A stretch of DNA of 64,000 nucleotides from a candidate division TM6 bacterium GW2011_GWF2_28_16 (GCA_001029715.1 CP011212.1:398936-462935), one strand, 5' to 3'. Shown: positions 47,543 to 64,000, numbered from the stretch's first letter. Translations and numbers: made by a program. The notes: a model not told the origin generated them from the sequence alone.

Positions 47543-47547
47543 ACTTG

Positions 47548-47618
47548 ATCCCGGGCCAGGATTTGAACCTAGAATAATTGATTCAGAGTCAATTGTGATG
47601 CCATTTCACTACCCGGGA
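47548..47618 (-). tRNA. tRNA-Gln (anticodon CUG)
   Basis: Reverse complement: acceptor TCCCGGG/CCCGGGA, D-arm GTGA..TCAC, anticodon stem ATTGA/TCAAT with loop CTCTGAA (CUG), T-arm CTAGG-TTCAAAT-CCTGG. Confidence 0.85.
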
Positions 47619-47690
47619 GGGTAAATTTTAAGATTTTTTTATTCTCTGATTATATAACAAAAGCAGTTTTTTGTTCTACAGAGGATAAAT

Positions 47691-48818: not shown

Positions 48819-50321
48819 TTATTTAAAATTCTCTTCTTTTATCTCCCAAATCTCTAAACAAGGTGCTCCGTTTGGTCGGCAGAAGCTCTTGAGGAGGTCT
48901 GCTTCGGGGAGTTTCATTTCTAGGCGATGAGAATTAACTATTAATAATTTGTTGTCAAAATCTCTGGCTTTTTGCCAAAACTCAGCGGGAATTTCTCTAA
49001 CTGGTTGACCGATGCCTTCGACGTAAATATTTTCAACGTTTTGATTATGGAGATTGAGCAAGATACCATCTGGGAGAGTGCCAAAATAGCCCTCGGTGGC
49101 GACGGCTACCCTTTGTGTTTCGGCTAGCTCTTGGATATAGGAGACCGATTCTTTGATGCCATGTCCTGAAGCCCAGCTTTCGAGAAACTGTTCTCGATCG
49201 ACTCTGCTTAGTTGTAGCTGATCGACTTTGAAGTAAGATGTGGAGATAAATAAAATCGATGGTAAGATAATTAAAAGCAAAAATAGATACTTGAAGATTT
49301 TCTTGTTGAAATTTTGTAGAGAAATAGTTGCTGAAGCAATAAAAAATAAACTACTGGGTAGGATGTAGCGAGGGTAAATAATTCTTCCGAGCAAAGCCAA
49401 AGGGAAAATAAAAATTAAACCAGATAAAAACAGAACCACTTGTTTACGTCTGGTTTTAGCTGAAAGCGGCAAGGCTAAGAGCAAAATCACTGGTCCCAGA
49501 TAATAAATGAGTTGTTCGTAGAAGAACTGACTGTTTTGCCAAAAAATCGTAAAAATTTCAGTGGACAAAATCACAGAGCGAGGTTGCAAAAAATTCCCTC
49601 CAACAGCAAATAATTGACTGAAAAGCGGTATTATTCTAAAGCTATAAAAAGCCAATCCAGCCAAAAGCAAGCCTACACTAATTTTAATGCTTTTATTAAT
49701 GATTAATTTTAAATTCAATTTTTCTTCAAAAAAAATCGCTAAGTAAAAGACTGGCATGAAGAGAAGAGCTGGGGTTTTACTCATAATGCTTAGTAAGAAA
49801 AAGAAAGCAAAAGGCAAAATTGGCCAGATCTTTTTATTTCTAATTATTAAGAGAGCAAAATAATAAGAAATAATCAGATTGGCAAATAAGAGCCCATCAG
49901 TTAAAGCCATGCGATTATAGAAAAAAGTAAAAGGACTAATAATTGCTAAGAACATGGCCAGATGAGCAGCCTTCTTTTCCTTGATTTTTCTCATGATTAA
50001 GAAAATCATTGAAACACTTACTCCTCCGACTAAAACCGCTAATAACCTAGCCGCGAAAAGCTGGTCAGTAATTAATTTCAAAAAAGGCAACATCAGCCAC
50101 ATCAGTAGAGGGGTTTTACCATCATTCATTGGATAAAAAAGATAGCGATTAAAATCATCAATAATCAGTTGTGACCAGCGAATATAGATTGATTCATCAG
50201 CAAAAACTGGTAAAGAAGTTAAATGAAAAAGATGCAAGGCAAAGTATAAAACAAGCAAAGCTAAAAAGAAAAAAAGAGTTTTATTTTTCACTTCTTCTAT
50301 TAAATAGGAAAAAGGTAGCAC
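48819..50321 (-). CDS. GT-C fold membrane glycosyltransferase (ArnT/PMT-like, GT39/83-like)
   Basis: ~11 TM. First extracytoplasmic loop carries FADESIYIRW (DE motif typical of polyprenol-P-sugar-dependent GT-C enzymes). Confidence 0.65.
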   Translation of the reverse strand: MLPFSYLIEEVKNKTLFFFLALLVLYFALHLFHLTSLPVFADESIYIRWSQLIIDDFNRYLFYPMNDGKTPLLMWLMLPFLKLITDQLFAARLLAVLVGGVSVSMIFLIMRKIKEKKAAHLAMFLAIISPFTFFYNRMALTDGLLFANLIISYYFALLIIRNKKIWPILPFAFFFLLSIMSKTPALLFMPVFYLAIFFEEKLNLKLIINKSIKISVGLLLAGLAFYSFRIIPLFSQLFAVGGNFLQPRSVILSTEIFTIFWQNSQFFYEQLIYYLGPVILLLALPLSAKTRRKQVVLFLSGLIFIFPLALLGRIIYPRYILPSSLFFIASATISLQNFNKKIFKYLFLLLIILPSILFISTSYFKVDQLQLSRVDREQFLESWASGHGIKESVSYIQELAETQRVAVATEGYFGTLPDGILLNLHNQNVENIYVEGIGQPVREIPAEFWQKARDFDNKLLIVNSHRLEMKLPEADLLKSFCRPNGAPCLEIWEIKEENFK

Positions 50322-51471
50322 TAAGCAAGAGGTAGAAGCTAGGGATTAGCCAAGTAATGGCTTTTTGCAGGCTTTCCAAACTACTTGAATCCAAGTGAAA
50401 ACTCATCCAAGGCAGATAGTACATCCAAGGTAAATAGCGTAGCAATGAAGAAAAGGAAAAAACGATTAATAAATTTCTGAGAAATTTATTTTTGATTAAA
50501 GGTAAAAAGATTAGAGACCAAAGTAAATACCAAGGTAAAAACTGTTTGGATCTTTCAGTTAGCAATGGAGCGAACATTGCTAAAGCCATTAAATCGTAGG
50601 TAGGGAATTTGCCTAGTCTTCCTAGCCTATTTTTGAGTGCTAAATAAATTATTAGAGGTAACAAAACAATTGTGGCAAATTTAATAGAAATTGATACAGT
50701 AAGCAAAACAGCAATTAAGATAATCTTGAAAATTTTTTTCTTTTGTAAATTAGTCGCTAGATAAACAGCTAATAAAGCTGGAGCCAGCATCCATAGATCA
50801 TTATGAGCACTGCTGAGAATTTCAATTAAAAGTAATGGATTTAAAAAGAATAAAGCTAATTTAAAATAGTTAGCTTTCTTGAAAAACTTTTCACTAATCA
50901 GCAGAGCTAGAATTAAGGAAAGAAAAGCAAATAGTTTAAAAACGATAAAGGTGGAAAGAAATTTCCCCAGTCCAGCTAGATATGGCAACAGTGACAAAGT
51001 AGTCCAACCATAACCATATGGAGCCGGGGTGTGAATGTTGTTCATGAAACGCAACATCGGATCATTAGGAAAATTAATGGCAGTTTGAACATGTGGATTA
51101 GCCCCATACTCGATGATCATTTTTGCATTAAAAATATAATTAAAAAGATCGTGAGAGAGGGCGTTGTAAGAAAAAATTAGGGGCAAACTGACAATGATTA
51201 GAAACTTCCAAAAATTTTGGCGAACATCAAGTTTTAAGCCATGCCAATTTTTAAGGATAAGCAAATAATTAATGAAGATCAAAGTGATTAGAACGCCATA
51301 GAAAATAGTTCTAAAATTTTGTAATGGTAAAACATGTTGCCAAAGATAAGTTTGAAGAGAAACAAAAAAATTAAGATTCAGCAAAGTCAGATTAGGATCG
51401 GTCAAAACAAAAGAAAAAATCGCAAAAACAACAAATAAAAAAAAATAACTTTTAAGTAAAAAACTTTTCAT
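50281..51471 (-). CDS. Polytopic membrane protein (possible GT-C/mannosyltransferase-like)
   Basis: 396 aa with >=10 TM. Lies within the glycan locus. Confidence 0.45.
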   Translation of the reverse strand: MKSFLLKSYFFLFVVFAIFSFVLTDPNLTLLNLNFFVSLQTYLWQHVLPLQNFRTIFYGVLITLIFINYLLILKNWHGLKLDVRQNFWKFLIIVSLPLIFSYNALSHDLFNYIFNAKMIIEYGANPHVQTAINFPNDPMLRFMNNIHTPAPYGYGWTTLSLLPYLAGLGKFLSTFIVFKLFAFLSLILALLISEKFFKKANYFKLALFFLNPLLLIEILSSAHNDLWMLAPALLAVYLATNLQKKKIFKIILIAVLLTVSISIKFATIVLLPLIIYLALKNRLGRLGKFPTYDLMALAMFAPLLTERSKQFLPWYLLWSLIFLPLIKNKFLRNLLIVFSFSSLLRYLPWMYYLPWMSFHLDSSSLESLQKAITWLIPSFYLLLSATFFLFNRRSEK

Positions 51472-52223
51472 TTTTTTGGATACTTGCCATTTAATTCAGC
51501 CATTCTGATTCGCAAAATATCAGCAAACATCAAAATGGAATCTCTCACCGGACTAACTCTATTACTTTGGAAGTGTTTCCATAAAATTGGTACCTCCTTC
51601 ATTGCAAACCCATATTTTTTAGCTAAATAGAGTAGCTCTACATCAAAGGCACCAGTAAAAGCATCTTGGCGTTCATTTTTACCAGAGTAAATGTATAGAT
51701 TATTAAACAGTTTTTCAGTAGTTCTCTCTGAAAAAAGCTTAAAGCCACACTGACTATCTTGAATGCCGGAAAGAGCCAATAGCTGAACGAGATAGTTAAA
51801 GCCTCTGCCCATCAGATGGCGATAAAAAGGCTCTTTTTCTCTTTTGGCGCCAATTATTTCTCTAGAGCCAAAAATGACTTCATATTCGCTATTATATTTA
51901 AGCAATTTACGAACTTCTCGAAGCGGAGTTGATTGATCAAAATCAGAGAATAAGCGCCAAGCACCATTGGCTTTGAGCATACCAGACTTAACAGTTGGAC
52001 CTTTACCTTTGTGTTGATTCAAAATTAGTTTAATACGCTCATCTTTTCGACTAAATTCTTCTAGAGCTCTGATGGTTCCATCAGTACTACCATCATCAGT
52101 CAGAATTAGCTCCCAAGATTTTTGATAGTCCCTCAGAAATTGGTAAACTTCTTCAAGAATACCACGTCTAATATTTTTCATTTCATTGTAGGAGGGGAGT
52201 ACAACCGACAAATATGGTTTCAT
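51468..52223 (-). CDS. GT2 polyprenol-phosphate sugar synthase-like glycosyltransferase (DPM1/ArnC-like)
   Basis: VVLPSYNE and LILTDDGSTDGT (GT2 DxD region). Confidence 0.8.
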   Translation of the reverse strand: MKPYLSVVLPSYNEMKNIRRGILEEVYQFLRDYQKSWELILTDDGSTDGTIRALEEFSRKDERIKLILNQHKGKGPTVKSGMLKANGAWRLFSDFDQSTPLREVRKLLKYNSEYEVIFGSREIIGAKREKEPFYRHLMGRGFNYLVQLLALSGIQDSQCGFKLFSERTTEKLFNNLYIYSGKNERQDAFTGAFDVELLYLAKKYGFAMKEVPILWKHFQSNRVSPVRDSILMFADILRIRMAELNGKYPKK

Positions 52224-52228
52224 AAAAT

Positions 52229-53773
52229 TTATTTATTATAACTAGTTAAAACACTAATTTCTGGACCATTTTCCATTTGAAAAACTTCGTCAATAGTTCT
52301 ACTTGGAAAAACAACTACTTCATAGAGAGATGTATCGAAAATATCATTTCTAACTTCTTTTTCATCATTAATAATAAAAAGTTTAGTGGCTAATTGATGA
52401 TCTTCAAGTTTGACTATTTTGTTTTCTTTAGTACTTAGAAAATATCGATAACTCATGCCATAAGAATCTTTAGATGGGGAAAAGAGAACAATATTATATT
52501 TTTCATCTTTATTAACTCTTCTATAAATCTCATCGCTAGTTTTACTCATGTCTCCTGGTTTCCAGCCAGCGTCTTTAATTGAATATCTACTTATATTACT
52601 TGAAATAAAAAATGCTAAAAATGGCAAAATAATTGCCAACATTAACCATTTATTTTTAAATTTAGCAAAGAAAAGGCCGTAAAGAATATAAACAAAAGGA
52701 AATAGATAGGCGATGTAGTGTTCATAAACCTCATGCTGGTAAAGACTAATGCCAATTATGCCAGGTAACAAATAAGCTAATAATACGATCTCGCTATCTT
52801 TGATTTTATTTTTATTTTTAACTAAATAAAATACGCTTGAAAGCAAAAGAAGATATAAAAGTGGATAATTTATTTTGTTAGCTGCAAAGCTTGGTTCAAA
52901 AAGAATTTGTGAAGCGCGATTTTTCAGATCGATTGTTACAAATTTAGTAATTGCGCCAAAACCTTCTCGACCCTTTTTTCTTTGTAAGTCAAAGCTCTCT
53001 TCCTTAACTAAAATCTTTGTGAAAGATTTGGCATTTGTGAAGTCATGCTTGTAATCAAAAAGCATGAGGGGAGTTAGAGAAATTATGAAAATAAGAACTG
53101 CTAGCGCAACATGTTTAAAAAACCTTTTTTCTTCGACAAAGAAATGTTTTTTGTTATTTTTAATTTTAGCAATGAGTTGGATTAAGAATACAATTCCTGC
53201 TCCTGATAAAGAGAGCAGAGTTACATAGTGCAATTGAATTAACAGGCTAAAACAAAGTGAAACCAAAAGCCAATATTTTGTATTTTTTTTCCAAGCTAAA
53301 AAAGTGAAATAAAACATCAATAAACTAAAAAATGGGGCGATGTTTGGGTTCCAACTAAAACGGGCAAGATTAACCACGCCGGCCGACAAAGTGAAAAAAA
53401 TTGTCGATATATAAGCAGTTTTTTTGTTAAAAAGTTTTTTAGTAATTTTGAAGAGCAAAAAAACTGTTAGAACACTTAAGCCAGCCACGGCATAAACTGG
53501 CCCAATTGGATTTGGGTAAGACAAGAACAAAAATGGCAACATAAAATAATAATAAAAAGGTCCTAAATACATGTTGCCAATACTAGTTACTGGACCAATA
53601 AAAACAGGATCTTTTTCTTTAAAAATTTGTGAAACTACTAAAGCATCTCTTCCCTGATCTCCTTGAAACATAAAAGTGTTTTTGAGATTAAAGAAACGTA
53701 AGAATATGGCTAAAGCTAAGATAAAAAATAAAAATAAGTATTCTTTTTTTATTTTTCTAATAGAGTCAAACAT
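52229..53773 (-). CDS. GT-C fold membrane glycosyltransferase (ArnT-like), paralog of the partial gene at the window end
   Basis: ~12 TM. QGDQGRDALVVSQIFKEKDPVFIGPVTSIGNMYLGPFYYYFMLPF block is shared with the CDS at 63591+. Start set at MFDSIRK. Confidence 0.6.
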   Translation of the reverse strand: MFDSIRKIKKEYLFLFFILALAIFLRFFNLKNTFMFQGDQGRDALVVSQIFKEKDPVFIGPVTSIGNMYLGPFYYYFMLPFLFLSYPNPIGPVYAVAGLSVLTVFLLFKITKKLFNKKTAYISTIFFTLSAGVVNLARFSWNPNIAPFFSLLMFYFTFLAWKKNTKYWLLVSLCFSLLIQLHYVTLLSLSGAGIVFLIQLIAKIKNNKKHFFVEEKRFFKHVALAVLIFIISLTPLMLFDYKHDFTNAKSFTKILVKEESFDLQRKKGREGFGAITKFVTIDLKNRASQILFEPSFAANKINYPLLYLLLLSSVFYLVKNKNKIKDSEIVLLAYLLPGIIGISLYQHEVYEHYIAYLFPFVYILYGLFFAKFKNKWLMLAIILPFLAFFISSNISRYSIKDAGWKPGDMSKTSDEIYRRVNKDEKYNIVLFSPSKDSYGMSYRYFLSTKENKIVKLEDHQLATKLFIINDEKEVRNDIFDTSLYEVVVFPSRTIDEVFQMENGPEISVLTSYNK

Positions 53774-53777
53774 GGTT

Positions 53778-54950
53778 TTATTTCTTCTTTTTCCAAACAA
53801 AAGTGCTGTAAGCGAAAAAATTCCAGAACATACCAACTAGAATACCCACCACTGCAGATATAACGCCCGTATCAATTATGTAGTTAACAATTGGTAGAGT
53901 AAATACAGGTTTAAGACCAATGGTAGCAGAAGTAAAGTAAGCAATGGCACTCTGAATTAAGATTGAGCCACCAGAAGATAAATTAAAAGTGAGAAAACTC
54001 ATTGGAATCTGACTGGCTTTTAACTTACGATCCTTAAAAGTCCAAAGATTGCTCCAAATAAAATTCGAGACGATAGCTGTTTCAATGGATAAAAAATTAG
54101 CAATCACGAAGCTTTTTTCTGATGAAAATGGTATTCTCCATAAAGATAAGGCGATTAGTTGAACCAAGGCTCCAAACCCTCCAACAATGGCAAATTTCAC
54201 CACTCTCATCTCTAAAATTTCTTTTATTCTAACCTTCATAAGATATAACAAAGTATTTTTGATATACTCTGGCCCTATTTTACTATTACCTACTACTCGA
54301 TCTTTAAATTCAAAAGGCACTTCTGCAATTTTGAAATTTTTACGCAAGGTTTTATGTAAAAAACCTATCTGAAAAGTATAACCTGAAAAACGATCATCAT
54401 GCAATTCATCTTCTATAGATAGGTATACTTCCTTTTTGATTGCTCGAAAGCCTGTCGTCCAATCTCTGATTGAGAAGTCCAGCATCAAAAAATTAATAAA
54501 AGCGTTTCCGACTATGCTTAAAAATTTACGATGTATGCCCCAGTTTTTAGGAATAGAGCCACCCTTAATGTATCTAGATCCTAAAACAAGGTCGTAGCCC
54601 TGATCAATCTTTTTTAAAAAAGCAGGAATTTTTTTAGGATCATGAGAGAGATCGGCATCAAACTCAAAAACTAAGTCTGCTTTTAATTTAGCAAAAGCAT
54701 GATTCATGCCAATCAAATAAGCCCCACCTAAGCCAGATTTTTTTTTATTGATTAATAATTCAAGAAATCTAAACTTTTTTTGTAAACTTTTCACGAGGAT
54801 TGCTGTGCCATCTGGAGAACTATCGTCAACTACTAAGATTTGCATTTGCCAATTTTTAATGCTTTTAAAAATTTCAGCAAGAGACTGGATGGTCTCTGCA
54901 ATATTACCTTTTTCATTATAAGTGGGAATAATGACAACGGCTTTTTTCAT
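53778..54950 (-). CDS. GT2 polyprenol-phosphate sugar synthase fused to a C-terminal GtrA-like 4-TM domain
   Basis: VVIIPTYNE and ILVVDDSSPDGT (GT2). C-terminal KFAIVGGFGALVQL... GtrA-like segment. Confidence 0.75.
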   Translation of the reverse strand: MKKAVVIIPTYNEKGNIAETIQSLAEIFKSIKNWQMQILVVDDSSPDGTAILVKSLQKKFRFLELLINKKKSGLGGAYLIGMNHAFAKLKADLVFEFDADLSHDPKKIPAFLKKIDQGYDLVLGSRYIKGGSIPKNWGIHRKFLSIVGNAFINFLMLDFSIRDWTTGFRAIKKEVYLSIEDELHDDRFSGYTFQIGFLHKTLRKNFKIAEVPFEFKDRVVGNSKIGPEYIKNTLLYLMKVRIKEILEMRVVKFAIVGGFGALVQLIALSLWRIPFSSEKSFVIANFLSIETAIVSNFIWSNLWTFKDRKLKASQIPMSFLTFNLSSGGSILIQSAIAYFTSATIGLKPVFTLPIVNYIIDTGVISAVVGILVGMFWNFFAYSTFVWKKKK

Positions 54951-54951
54951 C

Positions 54952-55929
54952 TTAGTTAGGATTTTTACTTTCAAATTCTATATCTTGCGTCACCATCAAA
55001 GTAACCAATTCTTCAAAACTAACTGAAGGCTCCCACTTAAGAATCTTTTTAGCTTTTTCTGGATTGCCAATTAATAAATCAACTTCGGCTGGACGATCAT
55101 ATTTTTTATTATGTTTAACGTATTTTTGATAATCTCCTAGACCTGCAACTCTGAAAGCAATTTCCAAGAATTCTCTGACACTATGAGTTTCACCAGTAGC
55201 AATCACAAAATCATCGGCTTTATCTTGCTGTAACATTAACCACATGGCTTTGACGTAATCTTTGGCATAGCCCCAATCTCTCTTTGCATCTAAATTGCCC
55301 AACTCAATAAAGTCTTGTTTACCTAGTTTAATGCGAGCCACAGCATTACTAATCTTACGTGTTACGAATTCTAGTCCGCGACGAGGCGATTCATGATTGA
55401 AAAGAATACCAGAAACAGCAAACATATCGTATGATTCTCGATAGTTAACCGTAATCCAATGTCCATAGACTTTGGCTACGCCATAAGGTGAGCGGGGGTA
55501 AAAGGGAGTATTCTCATTTTGAGGAACTTCTCTAACTTTGCCAAACATTTCACTTGAGCTAGCTTGATAGAATTTAGCTTTTGGACAAGCCAATCTCATA
55601 GCATCTAAAACTCTGGTTACGCCAATAGCGGTAAATTCTCCAGTTAAAACCGGCTGCTCCCAAGAAGCTTTAACAAAAGACTGAGCAGCTAAATTATAAA
55701 TTTCATCTGGCTGGATATCTTGCAAAGCAAAAGTTAAAGAATGTTGATCAATTAAATCTCCAGAAATAAGTTCAAGGTTTGGATTGTGAATAATAGATTT
55801 AATGCGATCGAAATTTTGAGTACTAGTGCGACGGGTTAGGCCATAAACTTTATAACCTTTTTCAAGCAAAAGCTCGGCTAAATAAGAACCGTCTTGTCCA
55901 GTAATGCCCGTGATAAAAGCTTTTTTCAT
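54952..55929 (-). CDS. gmd: GDP-mannose 4,6-dehydratase
   Basis: [26 protein letters not shown] plus the Y-x3-K region ([10 protein letters not shown]). The track start is extended; the real start is at MKKAF. Confidence 0.9.
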
Positions 55930-56870: not shown

Positions 56871-56887
56871 ATTGAATCCATTTTCCT

Positions 56888-58168
56888 TTATCTTTTACCA
56901 ATGCCCAAATATTGATATTGCCAATTTTTAACTCTTTCTGGATTAAATTGATTACGACAGTCAATGAAAGTTTGTTTTTTGTTATTTTTAACTTTAGAAA
57001 AATCAAAACTAATAATCTCTGGCCATTCAACTACTGCCATAATGATGTCAGCATTTTCACAAGCTTCTTCAATCGAGGAAAATTGTTGATGATTGTCGGT
57101 TGCTAGAGGATTATATTTAGCCATTGGATCGTAGCTTCTGACTTTAGCTTTTTTATCGCTTAAAAATGGAATAATTTTTGTCGACGGAGCTTCTCTCATA
57201 TCGTCAGTGTTAGGTTTAAAAGATAAACCCAAGATGGCAATAGTTTTGTCTTTGAAGCCACCCGACTCTTCAGCAAATTTCTTTAGAAGTCTGAAGATGC
57301 GATCTTTATTGATTTCATCAACGCGATTGAGTAAATTACCACTTTCCCCAACAGTGCGTGAATAAGCGGCCAATTCCTTAACATCTTTAGGGAAGCAAGA
57401 ACCCCCATAGCCTAAACCTGGATACCAGTAGTGTTGGCCAATTCTTTTATCGTAACCAATAGCCTTAATGACTTCTTCAATATCAGCGCCATTTTTTTCA
57501 CAAAGATTAGCAACTTCATTAATAAAAGTAATACGAGTAGCCAAATAAGAGTTGGCAGTGTATTTGGCCATTTGTGCCGAAGCGACTTTACAATGAACAA
57601 CTGGAGCTTTAAGCGTTTTGTGCAATTCTTCTAATTTTGTAAAGACGAAGTCATCTTCAGCACCAATGACAATTCTGTCAGGATTAAGAGTGTCAAAAAC
57701 AGCTGAGCCTTCTCTTAAGAATTCTGGTAAAGAAGCACCATAGAATTTAGTTGATATTTTTTCCTTGATGACAGAGATCACTTTTTCTAAAGTTCCTGGA
57801 GGAACAGTTGATTTAATGACTACAATGGCATTTTCTTTAAGATAGGGAGCAAGCGATTCTGCACTAGCTAAGACGTATTTTAAGTCAGCTGTGCCGTCTG
57901 AAGCCGATGGAGTTCCAACAGCGATAATGATGATTTCTGCCTCATTGATGGCTTCTTGATAAGAAGTGGTAAAACGTAATTTTCCTTTAGCTTGCTGTTC
58001 TAGCAATAATTCCTGCAAATCTGGTTCATAGAAAGGCACTTGGCCTTTTTCTAAGAGTTTAATTTTATTTTCATCAATATCTAAACCAATGACTTGGTTT
58101 CCGAAAGAGGCGTAGACTGCAGCTGAGACAACCCCTACGAAACCAGTGCCAATAACTGTTACTTTCAT
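56888..58168 (-). CDS. ugd: UDP-glucose 6-dehydrogenase
   Basis: MKVTVIGTGFVGVVSAA and catalytic GGSCFPKD. Confidence 0.9.
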   Translation of the reverse strand: MKVTVIGTGFVGVVSAAVYASFGNQVIGLDIDENKIKLLEKGQVPFYEPDLQELLLEQQAKGKLRFTTSYQEAINEAEIIIIAVGTPSASDGTADLKYVLASAESLAPYLKENAIVVIKSTVPPGTLEKVISVIKEKISTKFYGASLPEFLREGSAVFDTLNPDRIVIGAEDDFVFTKLEELHKTLKAPVVHCKVASAQMAKYTANSYLATRITFINEVANLCEKNGADIEEVIKAIGYDKRIGQHYWYPGLGYGGSCFPKDVKELAAYSRTVGESGNLLNRVDEINKDRIFRLLKKFAEESGGFKDKTIAILGLSFKPNTDDMREAPSTKIIPFLSDKKAKVRSYDPMAKYNPLATDNHQQFSSIEEACENADIIMAVVEWPEIISFDFSKVKNNKKQTFIDCRNQFNPERVKNWQYQYLGIGKR

Positions 58169-58234
58169 AAATTAACTTTCTATTTTGTTTATCTTGTATA
58201 ATAGCAGAGAACATATCTAATTTATCACGATTTT

Positions 58235-58873
58235 ATGAAAATTAATATTTTAACTATTTTTCCAGATTTCTTTAAGACTCCTCTTGAAACTTCGATCTTA
58301 AAGCGTGCTTTGGCTAAAGAAGCGATTGAGTTTAAGATTATAAATTTGCGTGATTTTGCGGAGGGTAAACATCAAACTACCGATCAGCGACCTTTTGGTG
58401 GTGGTCCAGGCATGGTCATGATGATTGAGCCTATTGATAAGGCTTTGCAGTCTTTAGGTCTTAGTAAGGGTCAAAAAAATAAAAGAATTCTTTTAACTTC
58501 TGCCAAAGGTAATTTATTTACTCAAGAAGTAGCCAGAGATTTTTCTTCTTTAGATGAATTAACCTTAATTTGTGGTCATTATGAAGGAGTTGATGAAAGA
58601 GTTGCTTTGTACTTAATAGATGCAGAAATCAGGATTGGTGACTATGTTTTAACCGGTGGTGAAACAGCTTCTTTAGTTATTGCTGACGCCGTAACAAGGC
58701 TAATTCCAGGTGTTTTAGGCAACGAGCTAAGTAATCAAGACGAATCACATAGCCAGCCTGGTAAAATGGCTCATCCACAGTTTACCAAACCAGTTGAATA
58801 CAAGGGTTGGAATGTGCCAGAAGTTTTACTTTCTGGAAATCATCAAAAAATTAAAGATTGGCGCACTCACTAA
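58235..58873 (+). CDS. trmD: tRNA (guanine37-N1)-methyltransferase
   Basis: MKINILTIFPDFF start. GGGPGMVMM and LTGGE blocks of the SPOUT TrmD family. Confidence 0.85.
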   Translation: MKINILTIFPDFFKTPLETSILKRALAKEAIEFKIINLRDFAEGKHQTTDQRPFGGGPGMVMMIEPIDKALQSLGLSKGQKNKRILLTSAKGNLFTQEVARDFSSLDELTLICGHYEGVDERVALYLIDAEIRIGDYVLTGGETASLVIADAVTRLIPGVLGNELSNQDESHSQPGKMAHPQFTKPVEYKGWNVPEVLLSGNHQKIKDWRTH

Positions 58874-59735
58874 TTACTTCTTTGATAGTTTTTTGCTTAA
58901 AATCTAAAATATTTTTGATTTTATCAATATTTAAAGCAGTATTTTTTTGATAAGGACGGTTGCTTGTCTCTAAATATTTAGCCAAAGAACCTGCTTTAAG
59001 ATCAAAATTAAGAGCAAACTTTTCATTAATAAGCTTGGCAAACTCAAAGTCTGTCCAGGATTCACCAGATGTAGCGTGATAAATTCCGGTCATTTTTTTA
59101 TTAATTACAAAGTCGATAATTTTAACGAAATCATTAATATAAGTTGGTCCGAAGTAATGATCACTAAACTGTGGATAAAGTTTGTTATTTTTCATGCCGT
59201 CTATAATTCTGTGCAAGGTGTCAACTTTTTCAAAAGCATCACTTCTGAAAGGTTGGTCGATACGCAAAATTGTCCAATCAATATTACTATTGGTAATGGC
59301 TTCCTCAGCCAAAGCTTTAGTTTTGCCATACCATTCAATTGGGTTAGTTTTGTCAGTTTCGACATACATTTCTTTTTTTTCACCGTCAAAAACATAAGCA
59401 GTGGAAAGGTGAATCAGATGTTTGCCTGTTTCTGCACAAGCTTTAACTAAGTTTTCCGTACCTCTCACGTTAACCGCATAACAAACTCCATTTACATCTC
59501 CAGTTTGTTGCCAAGCTCCGGTGACATCAGTGTAAGCTGCCATATGAACTACGAATTTAGAATCTGAAGTAGATAAAACAGACATGACTTGTTTTTCGTT
59601 GGTAATGTCAATTGGTCTAGATTCGTTGCGTAGATCTAAATTATCAAATTCATATTTATCTGCAAAATCTTTGACAAATCTAGAGCCAACTAGTCCGTTT
59701 AAACCAGTACCGAGAAGAGGAATTTTATTATCCAT
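58851..59735 (-). CDS. rmlD: dTDP-4-dehydrorhamnose reductase (RmlD-like)
   Basis: LLGTGLNGLVGSRF Rossmann motif. Y-x3-K (YGKTK). 294 aa. Adjacent to rmlB. Confidence 0.7.
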   Translation of the reverse strand: MDNKIPLLGTGLNGLVGSRFVKDFADKYEFDNLDLRNESRPIDITNEKQVMSVLSTSDSKFVVHMAAYTDVTGAWQQTGDVNGVCYAVNVRGTENLVKACAETGKHLIHLSTAYVFDGEKKEMYVETDKTNPIEWYGKTKALAEEAITNSNIDWTILRIDQPFRSDAFEKVDTLHRIIDGMKNNKLYPQFSDHYFGPTYINDFVKIIDFVINKKMTGIYHATSGESWTDFEFAKLINEKFALNFDLKAGSLAKYLETSNRPYQKNTALNIDKIKNILDFKQKTIKEVISECANL

Positions 59736-59748
59736 GATGAAACCTTTC

Positions 59749-60765
59749 TTATGTGTCGTATTGTTTATTAAAATAAGCTTGATTGTTTGTTTTGAGTGGT
59801 CTCCACCAATTTTGATTATTTTGATACCAAGCCACAGTTTTTTTTAAGCCTTCTTCCAAACTCACGCTAGGTTGCCAACCCAAAGCTTCTTGGGTTTTTG
59901 TAAAATCAACACTATAACGACGATCGTGACCAGGACGATCTTTGATATACTCGATGGCATTTTCGTCTTTACCCATAATCTTAATAATCATTTTGATCAG
60001 ATCAAGATTATTAACATCTTTATAAAGTCCACCGAAAAGATAAGTTTTGGCATTTTCGCCATTTTGTAAGATTAGATCGATGCCTTTACAGTGATCTTGA
60101 ACATAAAGCCAGTCCCGCACATAAAGTCCATCACCATAAATAGGGACTTTTTTATCATCAATTAAATTGGTGATGGCTAGGGGAATCATTTTTTCTGGGA
60201 AATGATATTCGCCATAATTATTAGAGCAGTTGCTTAAAGTAAATGGTAGACCATAGGTGTCGCCATAAGCGCGCACCAGATGATCAGAAGCGGCTTTTGA
60301 GGCAGAATAAGGACTATGAGGATTATAAGCTGTTTCTTCATTGAATTTTTCATTAGAGCCAAGTTCTAAAGCTCCAAAAACTTCATCAGTCGAAATATGA
60401 TGAAAACGTTTGACTTTGTGTTTGAGAGCGGCGTCTAGTAAAACCTGTGTGCCGAGAATATTAGTTTCAAGGAAAATAGCAGGTTCCATGATGGAACGAT
60501 CGACGTGAGATTCGGCAGCAAAATGAACAACCACGTCTACGTCTTCCATAATTTTATTGACGAGCTGACCATCTCTAATGTCACCTTGAATAAATTTATA
60601 TTGAGGATTGTTTTCAATATCCTTTAAAGTGCTGAGGTTGCCGGCATAGGTCAATAAATCTAGATTAATAATTTTATCTTCAGGATGATTCTGGAGATAA
60701 TAATGAACGAAGTTGGAACCGATAAAACCAGCACCACCAGTGATGAGTAAAGTTTGACTTTGCAT
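59749..60765 (-). CDS. rmlB: dTDP-glucose 4,6-dehydratase
   Basis: LITGGAGFIGSNFV and YSASKAASDHLVRAY. Confidence 0.9.
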   Translation of the reverse strand: MQSQTLLITGGAGFIGSNFVHYYLQNHPEDKIINLDLLTYAGNLSTLKDIENNPQYKFIQGDIRDGQLVNKIMEDVDVVVHFAAESHVDRSIMEPAIFLETNILGTQVLLDAALKHKVKRFHHISTDEVFGALELGSNEKFNEETAYNPHSPYSASKAASDHLVRAYGDTYGLPFTLSNCSNNYGEYHFPEKMIPLAITNLIDDKKVPIYGDGLYVRDWLYVQDHCKGIDLILQNGENAKTYLFGGLYKDVNNLDLIKMIIKIMGKDENAIEYIKDRPGHDRRYSVDFTKTQEALGWQPSVSLEEGLKKTVAWYQNNQNWWRPLKTNNQAYFNKQYDT

Positions 60766-60767
60766 AA

Positions 60768-60938
60768 TTAAAAATCCATTTCTTCTATTTTAGTTTCTAG
60801 TTTTTCTAGCTTGTTTTCTAAAAGTTTGTATTTTTTCTTTTCCACACTCAGAGAAGACTGATAAAAACCTGCCATAAAAGCTAAGACGATAATTGCAACC
60901 AGCATCAGACGAATAAGATTTTTAGTTGAAGATGGCAT
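60768..60938 (-). CDS. Small TM plus coiled-coil protein (56 aa), hypothetical
   Basis: MPSSTKNLIRLMLVAIIVLAFMAGFYQ... fills the gap between the LCP gene and rmlB. Start overlaps the LCP 3' end by 17 nt. Confidence 0.3.
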   Translation of the reverse strand: MPSSTKNLIRLMLVAIIVLAFMAGFYQSSLSVEKKKYKLLENKLEKLETKIEEMDF

Positions 60939-62031
60939 TGATACTTTCTGTAAATTTAATTTGATCTTTTATTTGATAGATCCATTGTTGTTTACTCTGC
61001 CAGAGCGGAGGATTGAAGATGACTCCGTTTTCATCATCTGGATAAATGCTTAATTGATGCTTTTCAAAAGAAATCTCTGTAGAAGTATTTTTACTTATAT
61101 AATCAATAAAAACAGTTCCAATTTGGATAATTTCTTCAGTACTAATATTTTTAGCGAAACGATCTAGATAAAAACGATAGAGCTGCCCAAATACTTCTGG
61201 GTTTCTAGTTTTTAAGATTTTATCAAAAATAGCTTCTAAAACTAATTGCTGTCTTTGAGCTCTTGCTTCATCAGTGCCCTCATCTCCCTCGCTGTGGCGA
61301 CTACGCATGTATTTCAAAGCCAGACTGCTATCCATTTCTTGAAAGCCAGTCTTAAAACTAACCTCTTCATAAAGTAATTTAGGATCAGTAATTTCACTAA
61401 CATCTACATCTTGAATTGGGAAAAGAGGATCGGTAAAAGCAATTGGCACGTCAATTTCTACTCCACCAAGGATATCAATCATTTTTTCTAAATCTTCAAT
61501 GCCCATGACAATGGTGTGATCTGCCTTAAAATTGCTAATTTCAGCAATGACTTCTTCTGGGAATTTCTCTGGAGTTTCTGGATATCTATCTTTGCCATAA
61601 AAATATAAAGCGTTAATTTTAGTCTGATAATTTTCTACGTATAAATCTCTTGGCAAGGAAAGAGTTTTGATTTTGCCATTTTTAAAGTCTGCTTGTAAAA
61701 GCATGACTGTGTCAGTTAGTTCTGGATCTCCATCTCTGCCACTGAGCTTATCGGTTCCTAGGATTAAAAAATTATATTTTTGAGCTAATTCCGAGACATT
61801 ATTTAAATTATCTTGAAATTGATTTAGAGAAATCGAAGCGGTATCAAGAACTTCTTCTTTGCTAAGTTCAGCTGCCTTGGCGAAGTCTTTAATGATTTTG
61901 TTAGTTTTGATGCTAAAGTAGATAAAAAGTGAAATAAAACTTAAAAATAAGAGTCCAAAGAACCAAAGTATCAATTTAAAAATAAGACTTGGCTTCTTAT
62001 ACTCGAGAGTAACAGTTAAATCTTGTTTCAT
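60922..62031 (-). CDS. LytR-CpsA-Psr (LCP) family glycopolymer transferase
   Basis: N-terminal TM. FLILGTD...RDGDPELTDTVMLL...LSLPRDLYV block typical of the LCP catalytic domain. Confidence 0.8.
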   Translation of the reverse strand: MKQDLTVTLEYKKPSLIFKLILWFFGLLFLSFISLFIYFSIKTNKIIKDFAKAAELSKEEVLDTASISLNQFQDNLNNVSELAQKYNFLILGTDKLSGRDGDPELTDTVMLLQADFKNGKIKTLSLPRDLYVENYQTKINALYFYGKDRYPETPEKFPEEVIAEISNFKADHTIVMGIEDLEKMIDILGGVEIDVPIAFTDPLFPIQDVDVSEITDPKLLYEEVSFKTGFQEMDSSLALKYMRSRHSEGDEGTDEARAQRQQLVLEAIFDKILKTRNPEVFGQLYRFYLDRFAKNISTEEIIQIGTVFIDYISKNTSTEISFEKHQLSIYPDDENGVIFNPPLWQSKQQWIYQIKDQIKFTESINAIFN

Positions 62032-62088
62032 TAAACTTGAGTATATTGGAAAAGTCGCTTATTTTCAAAGAGAAAAAAGTCGAATAGA

Positions 62089-63594
62089 ATGAAAGTTAAT
62101 ATGGATGAACACGAAATTTTACCAACTGATGACCTGACAAGTGAGTTGAGTGGTGAGGAAATTGCAGAAATTAAGAAAAAATCCGTCAAGGGTGTTGTCT
62201 CTTTTTTCGCACGAACCATAATTTTGCAAGGAGTTGGTTTGGTTTCAGCCTTCATATTAAGTGCTTTTCTATCTCCAGAAGATTTTGGTATTTTTGGGAT
62301 TGTTACGCAAATTATTGCTTTGCTTGTTTTCTTTTCTGACATCGGATTAGCAGCAGCTCTAATTCAAAAAAAAGCTGAGCCTACGGAAGATGACTATAAA
62401 ACGGCTTTCACAGTGCAATTAATTTTGGCTTGGACAATTTTCTTTATTGTTCTGGCAATTATTAAATTAGGTTTTTTAAATGTAAAAATTGGCAACGAAG
62501 GAATTCTAGTACTTTTAGCCTTGGCAATTTCTTTTCCTTTGGCAACTTTCAAAACCATTCCTTCAATTATTCTTGAGAGAAAATTAGACTTTAATAAATT
62601 AGTTTTGCCACAAATTTTTGAGCAAGTGGTTTTTCATTCAATTTTAATAGTTATGGCCTGGAAAGGTTATGGCGTAGCTTCTTATTTTTATGCTATTTTA
62701 TTTCGTAGCGTCATTGGTTTAATAGTGATTCAAATTTTGCAACCTTGGTTTCCAAAAATTAAAATTGATAGGCAGTCACTCAAAGGTTTACTTAGTTTTG
62801 GTTTCAAATTTCAACTCAATGATTTTTTAGCCCGCATCAAAGATCAGCTTTATTTCTTGGTTCTAGGAGCATTCTTGCCACTTAAAGATTTTGGCTACAT
62901 GCAGTGGTCAAAAAATTGGTCTATGTATCCATATAATTTAACTGTGCAGAATGTCATGTCAATTACTTTTCCAACTTTTTCGAGATTACAAAATCATAAA
63001 GATTTACTTAAAAAAGCCATTGAGAAATCACTTTATTTTATTTCTTTATTTATTTTTCCAATCTTAATTGGCATGTCTATCTTTATTTATCCTTTAACTG
63101 AGCTGGTGGATAAATACACTAAATGGCAGCCAGCGATCTTTTCTTTTGTTTTATTCTCACTTAGTGTGGCTTGGTCGGCAATTTCAACTCCACTTATTAA
63201 TAGTCTAAATGCGATTGGCAAGATTAACCAAACTTTGAAATTAATGACCATGTGGACTGTTTTAACTTGGGTTTTAACTCCAGTCTTAGTTTGGAAATTT
63301 GGTTTTAATGGCGTAGCTATTGCTGCTTTTTTAATATCTTTTACTTCTATTTTTTCAGTATTCATGACCAAAAAATATGTAGCTATAGAAGTGATGAGAA
63401 ATATTTGGCCACAATTAGTAGCAAGTCTTTTTATGGCTGTTTTTGGATTTTTAGGAATCAAATATTGGGGCTTAAGTTATCGTAATTTCTTTTTTGGTGG
63501 TTTTGCTTCATTTTTACTTTATGCTGTGGTGTTTTTTGTCTTATCTAAGAATAGGTTTTTAGAGGAAATTAAAAGTTTAAGAAAAAATTTATGA
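62089..63594 (+). CDS. wzx: Polysaccharide/oligosaccharide flippase (Wzx, MOP superfamily)
   Basis: 501 aa, ~12-14 TM. Polysaccharide biosynthesis protein family composition. Confidence 0.7.
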   Translation: MKVNMDEHEILPTDDLTSELSGEEIAEIKKKSVKGVVSFFARTIILQGVGLVSAFILSAFLSPEDFGIFGIVTQIIALLVFFSDIGLAAALIQKKAEPTEDDYKTAFTVQLILAWTIFFIVLAIIKLGFLNVKIGNEGILVLLALAISFPLATFKTIPSIILERKLDFNKLVLPQIFEQVVFHSILIVMAWKGYGVASYFYAILFRSVIGLIVIQILQPWFPKIKIDRQSLKGLLSFGFKFQLNDFLARIKDQLYFLVLGAFLPLKDFGYMQWSKNWSMYPYNLTVQNVMSITFPTFSRLQNHKDLLKKAIEKSLYFISLFIFPILIGMSIFIYPLTELVDKYTKWQPAIFSFVLFSLSVAWSAISTPLINSLNAIGKINQTLKLMTMWTVLTWVLTPVLVWKFGFNGVAIAAFLISFTSIFSVFMTKKYVAIEVMRNIWPQLVASLFMAVFGFLGIKYWGLSYRNFFFGGFASFLLYAVVFFVLSKNRFLEEIKSLRKNL

Positions 63595-64000
63595 AGAAGA
63601 ATTTTTTGCTTTATTTAATTTTTTTTCTTGTCTTGTTTAGTCATTTTTTTCTTTTAAAAGATGGGGTTATTCCTTTTCAATTTGATCATGGTAAAGATTC
63701 TCTAGCAGTCATGGACATGTGGTTAAATAAAAACCCCAAATTAATCGGTCCGTGGACGAGTATTCCTGGTTTGTATTTTGGTCCAGCTTGGTATTATTTA
63801 CTCTTGCCAGCTTTTCTAATTGGGGCTTGGAATCCAGTCTCTGCAGTTTGGTTGATGGTTTTATTACTTTTGGTACAAATTTATTTAGCCTATCGTTATT
63901 TAGGTAAAGAAGAAGCCTTTATTATGGCGACTGCACCAATGTGGTTAATGATTTCTACTAGTGCTTGGAACCCATTCCCAATGACTTTTGTTTCACTTAT
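63591..64000 (+). CDS. GT-C fold membrane glycosyltransferase (ArnT-like), partial; paralog of 52229-53773
   Basis: ATG overlaps the wzx stop (ATGA). FDHGKDSLAVMDMWLNKNPKLIGPWTSIPGLYFGPAWYYLLLP parallels the paralog. Open to the window end. Confidence 0.55.
   Translation, partial: MKKNFLLYLIFFLVLFSHFFLLKDGVIPFQFDHGKDSLAVMDMWLNKNPKLIGPWTSIPGLYFGPAWYYLLLPAFLIGAWNPVSAVWLMVLLLLVQIYLAYRYLGKEEAFIMATAPMWLMISTSAWNPFPMTFVSL

Follow-up and report, generated by a model that had tools for sequence, protein, structure and literature searches.

A conserved envelope-glycan cassette with predicted polyprenol-phosphate sugar synthases and three GT-C families in a Pacebacteria genome

The region described here belongs to an envelope-glycan island that spans at least 25 kb of the genome of an ultra-small groundwater bacterium (Pacebacteria, Patescibacteria/CPR), and it is the portion lying inside the window, the window being the whole 64,000-nucleotide stretch of DNA that was analyzed. 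The locus probably serves to extend or decorate, outside the cytoplasm, a wall glycan attached by LCP, with polyprenol-phosphate sugars as the donors. Its genes belong to known enzyme families in a new arrangement and do not represent a new kind of machinery; as the enzymology is conventional, the value of the locus is descriptive and enabling rather than paradigm-changing. CPR/Patescibacteria live attached to their hosts via the cell surface, the chemistry of their envelope is essentially unknown, and the reviews and genetic studies searched contain next to nothing on their glycans.

The core of the locus is an eight-gene operon on the minus strand (48819-58168). The features are as follows.

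48819-50321, minus: GT-C protein A, PMT_2 type, 500 aa from a GTG start (Pfam PMT_2 44.3 bits, cut-off 26.1)
50281-51471, minus: GT-C protein B, compact, of the ALG3/PIG-M/ALG6/PimE type, 396 aa (best structural matches ALG3 and GPI-MT-I)
51468-52223, minus: short GT2 (GT2s), 251 aa, no predicted TM segment, D94-F-D96 (Pfam Glycos_transf_2 70 bits)
52229-53773, minus: GT-C protein C, PMT/ALG12/ArnT-like fold, 514 aa from the ATG at 53773, with a small C-terminal alpha/beta domain
53778-54950, minus: predicted DPMS-type polyprenol-phosphate hexose synthase, 390 aa (GT2 domain and C-terminal GtrA/DPMS TM domain)
54952-55929, minus: Gmd, GDP-mannose 4,6-dehydratase (TIGR01472 449.3 bits, cut-off 415)
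55926-56870, minus: Rmd-type SDR, GDP-6-deoxy-D-lyxo-4-hexulose reductase-like, toward GDP-D-rhamnose (PDB relatives Rmd)
56888-58168, minus: Ugd, UDP-glucose 6-dehydrogenase family (NDP-sugar dehydrogenase model TIGR03026 443 bits, cut-off 190)
58235-58873, plus: trmD, functionally unrelated
58851-59735, minus: RmlD-like dTDP-4-keto-6-deoxyhexose reductase (Pfam RmlD_sub_bind 173.7 bits)
59749-60765, minus: RmlB, dTDP-glucose 4,6-dehydratase (TIGR01181 468 bits, cut-off 365)
60768-60938, minus: 57-codon ORF with one TM helix and a charged tail (gene calls in three independent assemblies)
60922-62031, minus: LCP (LytR-CpsA-Psr) glycopolymer-to-peptidoglycan transferase (PF03816 92.6 bits; TIGR00350 77 bits, cut-off 62.3)
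62089-63594, plus: MOP-family (Wzx-type) flippase, divergent from LCP (Polysacc_synt_3 177.5 bits)
63591-64000, plus: 5' part of D503, a 503-aa GT-C paralogue of C (by hhalign) that runs off the window end
22711-23496, plus: RmlA-like sugar-1-phosphate nucleotidyltransferase, 25 kb away (NTP_transferase 221.8 bits)

The gene order of the operon is ugd-rmd-gmd-dpms-gtcC-gt2s-gtcB-gtcA, with ugd as the first gene, and its junctions measure, in coordinate order, -41, -4, 5, 4, 1, -4, and 17 nt. The eight genes are packed at -41 to +17 nt, and most of the 80 species-level genomes compared preserve their order; their clustering is not due to chance. Beyond the operon lie trmD, which splits the locus and was absent from the initial annotation, then an operon of LCP, the small ORF, rmlB, and the rmlD-like gene, and then Wzx; the rml/LCP genes and Wzx form separate transcription units on opposite strands. 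The island, on whose extension the initial annotation was silent, continues for at least 9.5 kb past base 64000 and encodes at least four more GT-C-like proteins there. The DNA matches Candidatus Pacebacteria GW2011_GWF2_38_9, and locus L001 is identical to the window across their 11,912-nt overlap. The envelope-glycan gene content read earlier from the DNA was recovered by profile search, namely Gmd, an SDR reductase, Ugd, RmlB, two GT2 enzymes, LCP, Wzx, and three GT-C-fold proteins.

Sugar nucleotides and predicted polyprenol-phosphate sugar synthases

The gmd gene had been paired with an rmd- or fcl-like reductase gene for GDP-rhamnose or GDP-fucose. Gmd, which passes its cut-off, is 71-92% identical across the related loci that carry it, with one exception (L078, 53%). 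The reductase, whose gene overlaps gmd by 4 nt, finds Rmd enzymes as its best PDB matches (2pk3 at 8.8e-53 and 6x3b at 1e-39), while the GDP-L-fucose synthase (Fcl) model NF047922 gives 71.2 bits against a cut-off of 500; the pairing stands with an Rmd-type SDR, and the GDP-fucose option was dropped. Ugd was confirmed at the family level; the equivalog models TuaD (429 bits) and AglM (339 bits) were both under cut-off. In the cytoplasm, enzymes of these families would make UDP-GlcA (Ugd) and convert GDP-mannose into GDP-D-rhamnose (Gmd and Rmd). No gene for GDP-mannose synthesis was found in the window or the 9.5 kb past its end; GDP-mannose must exist in the cell, since it is the substrate of Gmd.

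A dTDP-rhamnose route had also been proposed from rmlB and rmlD, with rmlA elsewhere. RmlB passes its cut-off, whereas the RmlD-like protein (TIGR01214 150.5 bits, cut-off 224) and the RmlA-like protein (TIGR01207 309.8 bits, cut-off 360.65) do not, and tblastn of the window and of loci L001-L084 (four copies of the source contig and 80 related genomes) found no rmlC. The proposal is thus upheld for RmlB and not for a complete pathway. The RmlA-like protein is a possible supplier of dTDP-glucose.

Of two Dpm1/ArnC-like GT2 synthases described initially, one was thought to be fused to a GtrA flippase. Both GT2 enzymes were found, and the larger (Pfam GT2 97.8 bits; GtrA_DPMS_TM, PF04138, 65.7 bits) combines a GT2 domain bearing a DXD motif with the C-terminal TM domain. 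It is homologous over its full length to Pyrococcus furiosus DPMS (5mlz, 8.8e-38; residues 3-349 on 24-349, TM helices included), with the catalytic motif DADLSHDP aligned on DADLQHPP, and it matches ArnC in the PDB at 4e-15. The fused segment is what DPMS-type synthases normally have as their membrane domain and not a flippase; no stand-alone PF04138 ORF occurs among the ORFs scanned, the GtrA-like domain being present solely in this fusion. The sugar could be mannose or 6-deoxy-mannose, with GDP-D-Rha as the alternative candidate donor to GDP-mannose.

The short GT2 has DPMS (5e-12) and ArnC (4e-9) as its best PDB matches and PgfS (1e-15, far under cut-off) as its best NCBIfam match, and TuaG and PglI, both Leloir GTs, match it about as strongly as polyprenol-phosphate synthases do. 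It is probably a second polyprenol-phosphate sugar synthase, and alternatively a Leloir GT with a lipid-linked intermediate as its acceptor; its donor could be a UDP-sugar such as GlcA or Glc.

GT-C proteins of the island

The initial annotation had described three paralogous, ArnT-like GT-Cs, a triplication in which each copy carried the extracytoplasmic DE motif. Three GT-C-fold membrane proteins are indeed present, they are not transporters, and invariant acidic residues follow early TM helices in all of them. The remainder of the description had to be revised. First, B showed no sequence relation to A or C in the comparisons run, and A and C are weakly similar (26% identity over 113 aa, E 0.005; hhalign probability 74%). 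Second, no ArnT model was matched by A, B, or C, and arnA/B/D/E/F were not found. Third, the DE motif is confined to A (D42-E43 in "FADE", invariant among orthologs), while C has D39-Q40..D43 and B has H107-D108...Y112. A, B, and C represent three separate families, each of them old, conserved in its own right, and non-redundant with the others, and the island as a whole has at least seven proteins of GT-C type, which replaces the picture of a triplication.

A and C reach the gathering cut-off of 26.1 for Pfam PMT_2, a GT-C family of the GT39/GT83 type, and neither matches the bacterial Pmt model NF058602 (cut-off 800) at E <= 0.01. A has alternative starts at codons 11, 22, and 29, and at its C-terminus it carries a conserved extracytoplasmic domain some 125 aa long. 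Its ortholog profile finds in the PDB PMT (9i5k, 4.6e-8) and Pmt4 (8.7e-6) and no ArnT. The ORF of C is extensible upstream to a TTG at 53836. The best structural match of C is Pmt4, and ArnT and ALG12/ALG9 score nearly as high.

That A and C are structurally nearest to protein O-mannosyltransferases counts against the wall-glycan reading, and a protein acceptor fits equally well. In general protein O-glycosylation, the PMT-like GT-Cs (A, C, and relatives) would modify Ser/Thr of secreted, pilus, or S-layer proteins, and the LCP and rml genes would be a separate neighbouring wall-polymer pathway. Protein O-mannosyltransferases are the sole significant solved matches of the A profile, the "O-glycosylation flippase" model scores Wzx (99.6 bits) about as well as the best-matching generic MOP flippase model (PRK10459, 101 bits; both under cut-off), and PgfS, the top NCBIfam match of the short GT2, belongs to the streptococcal Pgf protein-glycosylation machinery (10.1101/2022.10.10.511621). 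However, these family matches all fall far under their cut-offs, the nearest solved enzymes of B (ALG3, PIG-M, ALG6, PimE) use lipid-linked glycans and not proteins, and the near-equal scores of C with ArnT and ALG12/ALG9 involve enzymes with non-protein acceptors. In L020, L029, and L041, the C-GT2s-B-A string also has LCP as its first gene, directly upstream of C. Together, these observations make a protein acceptor unlikely.

B has the multi-TM core and juxtamembrane helices of the GT-C fold. Its D108 and Y112, which do not vary among 38 sequences, share the D-x-x-x-Y spacing of PimE D58/Y62 (PMC12041525), and D108 is a candidate for the catalytic Asp expected in an extracytoplasmic loop near the N-terminal TM helices. 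The B-type family comprises 357 clusters at 50% identity (E <= 1e-30); GT-Cs of the ALG3/PIG-M/PimE structural type thus form a sizeable bacterial family outside Actinobacteria. MptA is the sole NCBIfam match of B, and its assignment as an MptA equivalog (TIGR03459) was rejected at 40.9 bits (E 1.2e-10) against a cut-off of 439.4.

These similarities bring up a membrane-anchored lipoglycan, a lipomannan- or rhamnomannan-like polymer built on an outer-face glycolipid anchor as by Ppm1 with PimE/MptA/MptB, with no ligation by LCP. The MptA match, the structural closeness of B to PimE, and the combination of a DPMS-type synthase with multiple GT-Cs, which is the logic of LM/LAM, all fit such a product. 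Its probability is nevertheless low: the MptA score is a small fraction of the cut-off, PimA/PimB-type GT-B and anchor-synthesis genes were not seen in the window, and the repeated linkage to LCP and Wzx points to a polyprenyl-PP-linked, wall-attached product.

Past the window end, hhalign related D503 to C (probability 99.3%, E 3e-20), E557 to C (96.8%), and F583 to A (97.7%); F583 scores 18.3 bits with NF058602 (cut-off 800). Orthologs of H568 match PTPS_related (6/6), GT-C_AftD (6/6), and YfhO (2/6). A 631-aa polytopic protein to which no family is given is also encoded there.

Gene context in relatives and the proposed pathway

The LCP ligase and the Wzx flippase named initially were both borne out by their domain scores, and the LCP protein has an N-terminal TM anchor at residues 20-38. 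Of the parts of a Wzx/Wzy-dependent O-antigen or capsule cluster, the flippase was thus recognized, and Wzy_C, Wzz, and initiating phosphoglycosyltransferase domains were absent from the scanned ORFs of the window and L001 (including the 9.5 kb beyond). Like the absence of rmlC and of GDP-mannose synthesis genes from this stretch, these absences count against the pathway proposed below.

Synteny was assessed in 80 species-level patescibacterial genomes, in which B identities reach down to 37%. Near B, the short GT2 is kept in 77 of the 80 loci as its most constant neighbour, followed by C (74), A (72), DPMS (69), Gmd (66), Rmd (65), and Ugd (63). Background collinearity is high in this clade (trmD lies beside the cassette in 39 of 63 Ugd-carrying loci, and a response regulator in 54/80), and plain synteny is therefore weak evidence for functional linkage. 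Independent rearrangements, however, keep the cassette parts together. L029 and L041 carry a co-directional LCP-C-GT2s-B-A-H568-Wzx string, L043 and L082 an Ugd...A-H568-Wzx string, so that Wzx is co-directional with the GT-C cassette in all four, and in L032 DPMS-C-GT2s-B adjoins RmlD-RmlB-LCP and H568-Wzx. A natural B-A fusion protein (P0278) also exists. The region might alternatively be a mosaic, in which sugar-nucleotide, GT, and export genes are independent of one another and stay adjacent through the generally high collinearity of these small genomes. Such a reading could draw on the inserted trmD, on the equally syntenic trmD and response regulator, and on the separate rml/LCP and Wzx units, but it is highly improbable given eight core genes that overlap or lie <=17 nt apart, parts that re-associate in other orders, the B-A fusion, and coherent predicted functions in which two donor synthases stand beside three donor-using GT-Cs.

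Collectively, the PMT matches of the A profile, the full-length DPMS homologue, and the presence of LCP and Wzx in the cassette string of rearranged relatives support the extracytoplasmic, polyprenol-carrier-dependent glycosylation proposed initially, and gene context favours a wall glycopolymer over a protein or S-layer as the acceptor. In the proposed pathway, the DPMS-type GT2 would load a single sugar onto polyprenyl phosphate at the inner face, as its architecture suggests, and the short GT2 would probably do likewise. After flipping, A, B, and C, with their GT-C folds and acidic residues, would move these sugars to an outer-face acceptor. The likeliest acceptor is a glycan linked to polyprenyl diphosphate, which the neighbouring Wzx would export. 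To judge from gene context, the additional GT-Cs D503, E557, F583, and H568 may build the glycan further, the rmlB and rmlD-like genes may supply a 6-deoxyhexose for it, and the LCP enzyme would finally ligate it to peptidoglycan.

As Gmd/Rmd and Ugd are hard-wired to two predicted polyprenol-phosphate sugar synthases, the operon, whose conservation reaches deep into Patescibacteria, may make undescribed lipid-linked donors. We put forward as a speculative extension that these are polyprenol-P-D-rhamnose and/or polyprenol-P-glucuronate, used by the three GT-C families to build the main wall-attached surface polysaccharide. If true, such a polymer would define the envelope of the lineage and would be a likely host-attachment determinant of these ultra-small episymbionts. 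The lineage-conserved module defined here, whose eight genes include a pair of predicted donor synthases and three GT-C families that are not redundant, and which is physically tied to LCP and Wzx, predicts a wall-linked polymer with Man/D-Rha/GlcA-type sugars assembled outside the membrane. Heterologous biochemistry, probing of enrichments with lectins or antibodies, and, once a relative with the cassette is in culture, genetics thereby gain testable targets.

Comparison with known systems

Compared to the ArnC/ArnT system for lipid A aminoarabinose, the locus likewise has Ugd at the pathway head, ArnC-like GT2s, and PMT_2-family GT-Cs, but it lacks ArnA/B/D/E/F and ArnT matches, its A profile finds PMT, and it resides in a monoderm CPR cell without lipid A. 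A uronic-acid variant of the Arn system exists in Rhizobium (RgtE/RgtA-D), where a polyprenol-P-uronic acid donor is known. The Gmd and Rmd pair is shared with the Aneurinibacillus thermoaerophilus S-layer glycan and the Pseudomonas aeruginosa common polysaccharide antigen. There, Leloir GTs in the cytoplasm use the GDP-D-Rha; here, the next gene downstream of the pair encodes a DPMS-type synthase, and a D-rhamnosyltransferase was not identified. The archaeal and eukaryotic Dol-P-Man systems (Dol-P-Man synthase with ALG3, PIG-M, and PMT) offer the P. furiosus DPMS homologue and structural counterparts of B (ALG3, GPI-MT-I) and C (Pmt4), yet identity is only 10-15%, the context here is one of bacterial LCP and peptidoglycan, and no OST/N-glycosylation component is present.

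The Pgf machinery of Streptococcus mutans (pgfS-pgfM1-pgfE-pgfM2) likewise has, within one operon, genes for a GT2 and a nucleotide-sugar enzyme together with those for two polytopic membrane GTs, and PgfS is, ArnC aside, the best NCBIfam match of both GT2s. At 58-61 bits against a cut-off of 500 they are not orthologues, and Pgf modifies adhesin proteins (10.1101/2022.10.10.511621), whereas the LCP linkage here suggests a wall polymer. Gtr-type three-component glycosylation (GtrA/GtrB/GtrC, CsbB/GtcA/YfhO; PMC5836110) and the streptococcal GtrB-type systems with GT-Cs (PMC12041528) resemble the scheme predicted here in having a GT2 that makes a polyprenol-phosphate sugar, a GtrA-like TM module, and GT-C transfer to an extracytoplasmic acceptor, and H568 adds YfhO/PTPS_related similarity. 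Those systems have one of each component, whereas this locus has a pair of predicted synthases with three GT-Cs (at least seven island-wide), its GtrA-like domain forms one protein with the synthase in the manner of DPMS, and its sugar-nucleotide enzymes belong to the operon.

Compared to the actinobacterial pathways (Ppm1 with PimE/MptA/MptB for PIM/LM/LAM, and GT-C arabinosyltransferases with Lcp1 for arabinogalactan), the locus differs in having no equivalog-level match, a synthase built like archaeal DPMS and not like Ppm1/Ppm2, a flippase of the Wzx type, and GDP-D-rhamnose and UDP-GlcA genes in the operon, all in a CPR bacterium with a genome of <1 Mb. Shared with those pathways, in roles that are predicted for the locus, are a GDP-Man-type GT2 that makes a polyprenol-P-hexose, several different GT-Cs that extend the glycan outside the membrane, and an LCP enzyme that joins the polymer to peptidoglycan. 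The rhamnose-containing linker of mycobacteria depends on the dTDP-rhamnose (rml) pathway, and here the rml genes lie beside the LCP gene. The logic of the proposed pathway resembles actinobacterial arabinogalactan/lipomannan assembly and streptococcal side-chain glycosylation more closely than ArnT-type lipid A modification.

Operon structure and its setting

Eight genes run head to tail on the minus strand from 58168 down to 48819, in the order ugd, rmd, gmd, a dolichol-phosphate mannose synthase (DPMS)-type GT2, C, a short GT2, B and A, where A, B and C denote GT-C proteins. The successive junctions from ugd to A measure 17, -4, 1, 4, 5, -4 and -41 nt. Because they span only -41 to 17 nt, the packing marks these genes as one operon. 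A second minus-strand unit follows, from which the Wzx flippase gene diverges at LCP; of the gene after Wzx, the first 410 nt fall within the window.

Features of the glycan region and its neighbors
45724-48786, two-component system adjoining the cassette, four ORFs, as follows
45724-46560, histidine kinase, followed by a 259-aa ORF of no known function
47691-48356, plus strand, OmpR-type response regulator
48337-48786, minus strand, 149-aa stand-alone HATPase_c-like ORF immediately downstream of A
48819-50321, minus strand, A
50281-51471, minus strand, B
51468-52223, minus strand, short GT2, 251 aa
52229-53773, minus strand, C
53778-54950, minus strand, DPMS-type GT2, 390 aa
58235-58873, plus strand, trmD, a housekeeping gene separating the two glycan operons and unrelated to them
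62031-58851, minus strand, second unit: LCP, 57-codon membrane ORF, rmlB, rmlD-like gene
60768-60938, minus strand, 57-codon ORF between LCP and rmlB, with one TM helix and a charged tail, probably coiled

Three independent assemblies annotate the 57-codon ORF as a gene. At its 3′ end, trmD shares 23 nt with the rmlD-like gene, which converges on it. The adjoining two-component system may regulate the glycan operon. A consensus scan of 47.5-64 kb detected 58 sigma-70 promoter-like sites, about as many as chance would give (56.7); terminator-like sites in the same interval were nearly all intragenic, which made that scan uninformative.

The window has a G+C content of about 34% and tightly packed genes. 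B (396 aa) is 100% identical to UT13_C0001G0459 of "Candidatus Pacebacteria bacterium GW2011_GWF2_38_9," an organism assigned by NCBI to the phylum Minisyncoccota (Patescibacteria/CPR). The remaining genes serve mostly housekeeping and central metabolism (tRNA synthetases, SecDF, RRF, RecJ, PFL and others), together with a few secreted or uncharacterized proteins that have no evident link to glycans. Exceptions to this background are an RmlA-like gene (22711-23496) and a GT4 gene.

Further features elsewhere in the window
16768-22430, run of ORFs with no Pfam match (290, 738, 276 and 202 aa), then a CAP/SCP-domain secreted protein at 21510-22430
35814-36947, minus strand, GT4 glycosyltransferase gene, one frame broken by an in-frame TAA at 36432-36434

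The ORF run may encode surface proteins particular to the lineage, which would be candidate targets of glycosylation. The two pieces of the GT4 gene (N-terminal, 171 aa; C-terminal, 194 aa, with the Glycos_transf_1 domain) appear as separate ORFs; a pseudogene, a split gene or an assembly error could each explain this.

Donor supply and glycosyltransferase families

Nearly all gene calls of the initial annotation were borne out. Gmd and RmlB score above their equivalog cut-offs (449 against 415 and 468 against 365, respectively), Ugd clears the NDP-sugar dehydrogenase model, LCP clears TIGR00350, and the flippase belongs clearly to Polysacc_synt_3/MOP. For the dTDP-rhamnose pathway proposed there, the RmlD-like and RmlA-like proteins are family members scoring under the equivalog cut-offs, and a tblastn search detected no RmlC-like sequence in the window or 80 related loci, which is weak evidence of absence. 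Should rmlC indeed be lacking, RmlB and the RmlD-like protein would be expected to yield a dTDP-6-deoxy-D-hexose in place of L-rhamnose. The SDR beside Gmd had been read as an rmd/fcl-like reductase yielding GDP-rhamnose or GDP-fucose. Its nearest solved enzymes are Rmd 2pk3 (8.8e-53) and 6x3b (1e-39) and it scores poorly against the Fcl model, so that, judged by homology, its likely product is GDP-D-rhamnose and not GDP-fucose.

Two polyprenol-phosphate-sugar synthases had also been proposed. The 390-aa GT2 is a full-length homologue of the Pyrococcus furiosus dolichol-phosphate mannose synthase (5mlz, 8.8e-38), with the catalytic DADLSHDP aligned to DADLQHPP and the C-terminal TM helices aligned as well (NFIWSNLWTFKD to NFFWNDIWTFKD). 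Since the alignment spans both the catalytic domain and the TM helices, what had been taken for a fused GtrA flippase domain is ordinary DPMS architecture and does not point to a flippase. No TM segment is predicted in the 251-aa GT2, which contains D94-F-D96. Among solved structures it is closest to DPMS (5e-12) and ArnC (4e-9), and PgfS is its top NCBIfam match; two Leloir enzymes, TuaG and PglI, score about equally well. On these similarities it is a probable second synthase.

The three GT-C enzymes are present, yet they are not the triplicated ArnT-like paralogues described earlier. Over a stretch of 113 residues A and C are 26% identical (E 0.005), and their ortholog profiles align with an hhalign probability of 74%; pairwise and profile comparisons detected no relation of B to A or C. 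On these comparisons a recent triplication was rejected, and at the sequence level A, B and C are three separate families. A clears Pfam PMT_2, and its profile retrieved protein O-mannosyltransferases from the PDB (4.6e-8 and 8.7e-6) and no ArnT. The extracytoplasmic DE motif, attributed to all three, was found in A alone, as the invariant D42-E43. The most conserved part of A is its C-terminal extracytoplasmic domain (about 125 aa; 48819-49200; ATEGYFGTLPDGI), which has two conserved Cys, matches no Pfam family and may be an acceptor-binding module.

Against the PDB, single-sequence phmmer searches with A, B and C gave no match, nor did the profile of C. Subclass GT-C_A includes PimE and ALG6 as well as ArnT and PglB (PMC12041525), so subclass labels are unusable for separating B from A and C; B was set apart by its nearest structural neighbors alone. 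All B homologues bear the precomputed Pfam label PF26314, which probably stems from a later release than our local Pfam-A copy, where B matched no family even at E <= 1.

Conservation of the cassette and its extension

In a scan with one genome per species, B had 172 relatives; the top 80 loci were fetched with 8-kb flanks. B identity falls as low as 37% among them. The B family comprises 357 clusters (50% identity) at E <= 1e-30 and about 4,500 at E <= 0.001. Most titles name Patescibacteria groups (Pacebacteria, Microgenomates, Woesebacteria, Shapirobacteria, "Paceibacterota"). Many records among L005-L084, the related loci, are titled "uncultured Pseudomonadales," and three are titled Limisphaerales, Methylococcaceae or Pseudomonadales; in these MAG records, too, the patescibacterial cassette is present (37-77% identity), and their titles are apparently taxonomic mislabels in public records.

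In the best 80 of the 172 loci, the order Ugd-Rmd-Gmd-DPMS-C-short GT2-B-A recurs, with the short GT2 kept in 77, C in 74, A in 72, DPMS in 69, Gmd in 66, Rmd in 65 and Ugd in 63. However, trmD is retained in 39 of the 63 Ugd-bearing loci and the response regulator in 54 of the 80. This shows that background collinearity is high, so that synteny by itself is weak functional evidence. Beside the cassette, the HATPase_c-like fragment is kept in 29 of the 80 genomes.

Rearranged genomes are more telling than plain synteny. L029 and L041 carry a single co-directional string LCP-C-short GT2-B-A-H568-Wzx, H568 being a 568-aa polytopic protein; L020 has LCP-C-short GT2-B before the contig ends; L043 and L082 have Ugd followed further on by A-H568-Wzx; and in L032, DPMS-C-short GT2-B adjoins RmlD-RmlB-LCP and H568-Wzx. 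A library of 1.84 billion proteins contains a 938-aa protein (P0278) predicted to be a head-to-tail fusion of B-type and A-type GT-Cs. In the window, the genes for B and A, whose counterparts are joined there, overlap by 41 nt.

A 425-kb metagenome contig (L001), identical to the window across an 11,912-nt overlap, reaches 9.5 kb past its end. It encodes five further large polytopic proteins, each without a Pfam match as a single sequence, and then two more GT2 genes. Profile comparisons identify D503 (503 aa) as a paralogue of C (99.3% probability), relate E557 (557 aa) to both C (96.8%) and A (91%), and relate F583 (583 aa) to A (97.7%). Orthologues of H568 match PTPS_related (6/6, best 6.5e-13), GT-C_AftD (6/6) and YfhO (2/6). 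This brings the GT-C-type proteins of the island to at least seven, of which the initial annotation saw the first three alone. The fifth protein is as follows.

L001 16493-18388, plus strand, G631, 631 aa, about 13 hydrophobic segments

G631 matches nothing in Pfam or NCBIfam, and profile comparisons with A, B and C showed no similarity. In L043, a relative with 23% identity comes after Wzx. G631 might serve the glycan system as a polymerase or ligase, or be something else entirely.

Proposed pathway and comparison with known systems

The observed enzyme families, folds, conserved acidic residues, operon packing and repeated physical linkage allow a pathway to be outlined. First, Ugd would produce UDP-GlcA, and Gmd with Rmd would convert GDP-Man to GDP-D-Rha. 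Second, the DPMS-type enzyme, and probably also the short GT2, would charge polyprenyl phosphate. Given that the operon starts with Ugd and that Gmd and Rmd directly precede the gene of the DPMS type, polyprenol-P-D-rhamnose or polyprenol-P-GlcA is a possible, if rather doubtful, product of the synthases. Third, after translocation, A, B and C would move single sugars onto an extracytoplasmic acceptor. This acceptor would most likely be a Wzx-exported, polyprenyl-PP-linked glycan that LCP would finally ligate to peptidoglycan; LCP, Wzx and the GT-C-type H568 repeatedly join the cassette, which makes such a glycan the most economical choice. Protein O-glycosylation, in which the acceptor would be a protein, draws on A and C being nearest to PMTs and is a live but rather unlikely alternative. 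A membrane-anchored lipoglycan, to which the resemblance of B to PimE/MptA points, is another live alternative of about the same low likelihood.

All components come from known families, with equivalog-level membership limited to Gmd, RmlB, LCP and generic families. The Arn system and the classical three-gene Gtr unit were rejected as the identity of the region. A canonical Wzx/Wzy O-antigen cluster, an alternative raised at the outset, appears unlikely, as no Wzy, Wzz or PGT was detected in the window or the 9.5 kb beyond it, although G631 there matches no known family. A description of the cassette is absent from the searchable literature on Patescibacteria/CPR GT-Cs, mannosyltransferases, rhamnose and lipoglycans, and it is not treated in a Saccharibacteria genetics paper or a Patescibacteria review. 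What is new is the combination of two donor synthases with three non-redundant GT-C families and built-in supply genes for GDP-D-Rha and UDP-GlcA, conserved in much of the Patescibacteria and linked with LCP and Wzx. The cassette gives studies of the uncharacterized envelope glycans of CPR bacteria a concrete and testable point of entry. Mechanistically it is conventional, and the proposed logic is close to that of actinobacterial arabinogalactan and lipomannan assembly and of streptococcal and Bacillus Gtr-like side-chain glycosylation (PMC5836110, PMC12041528).
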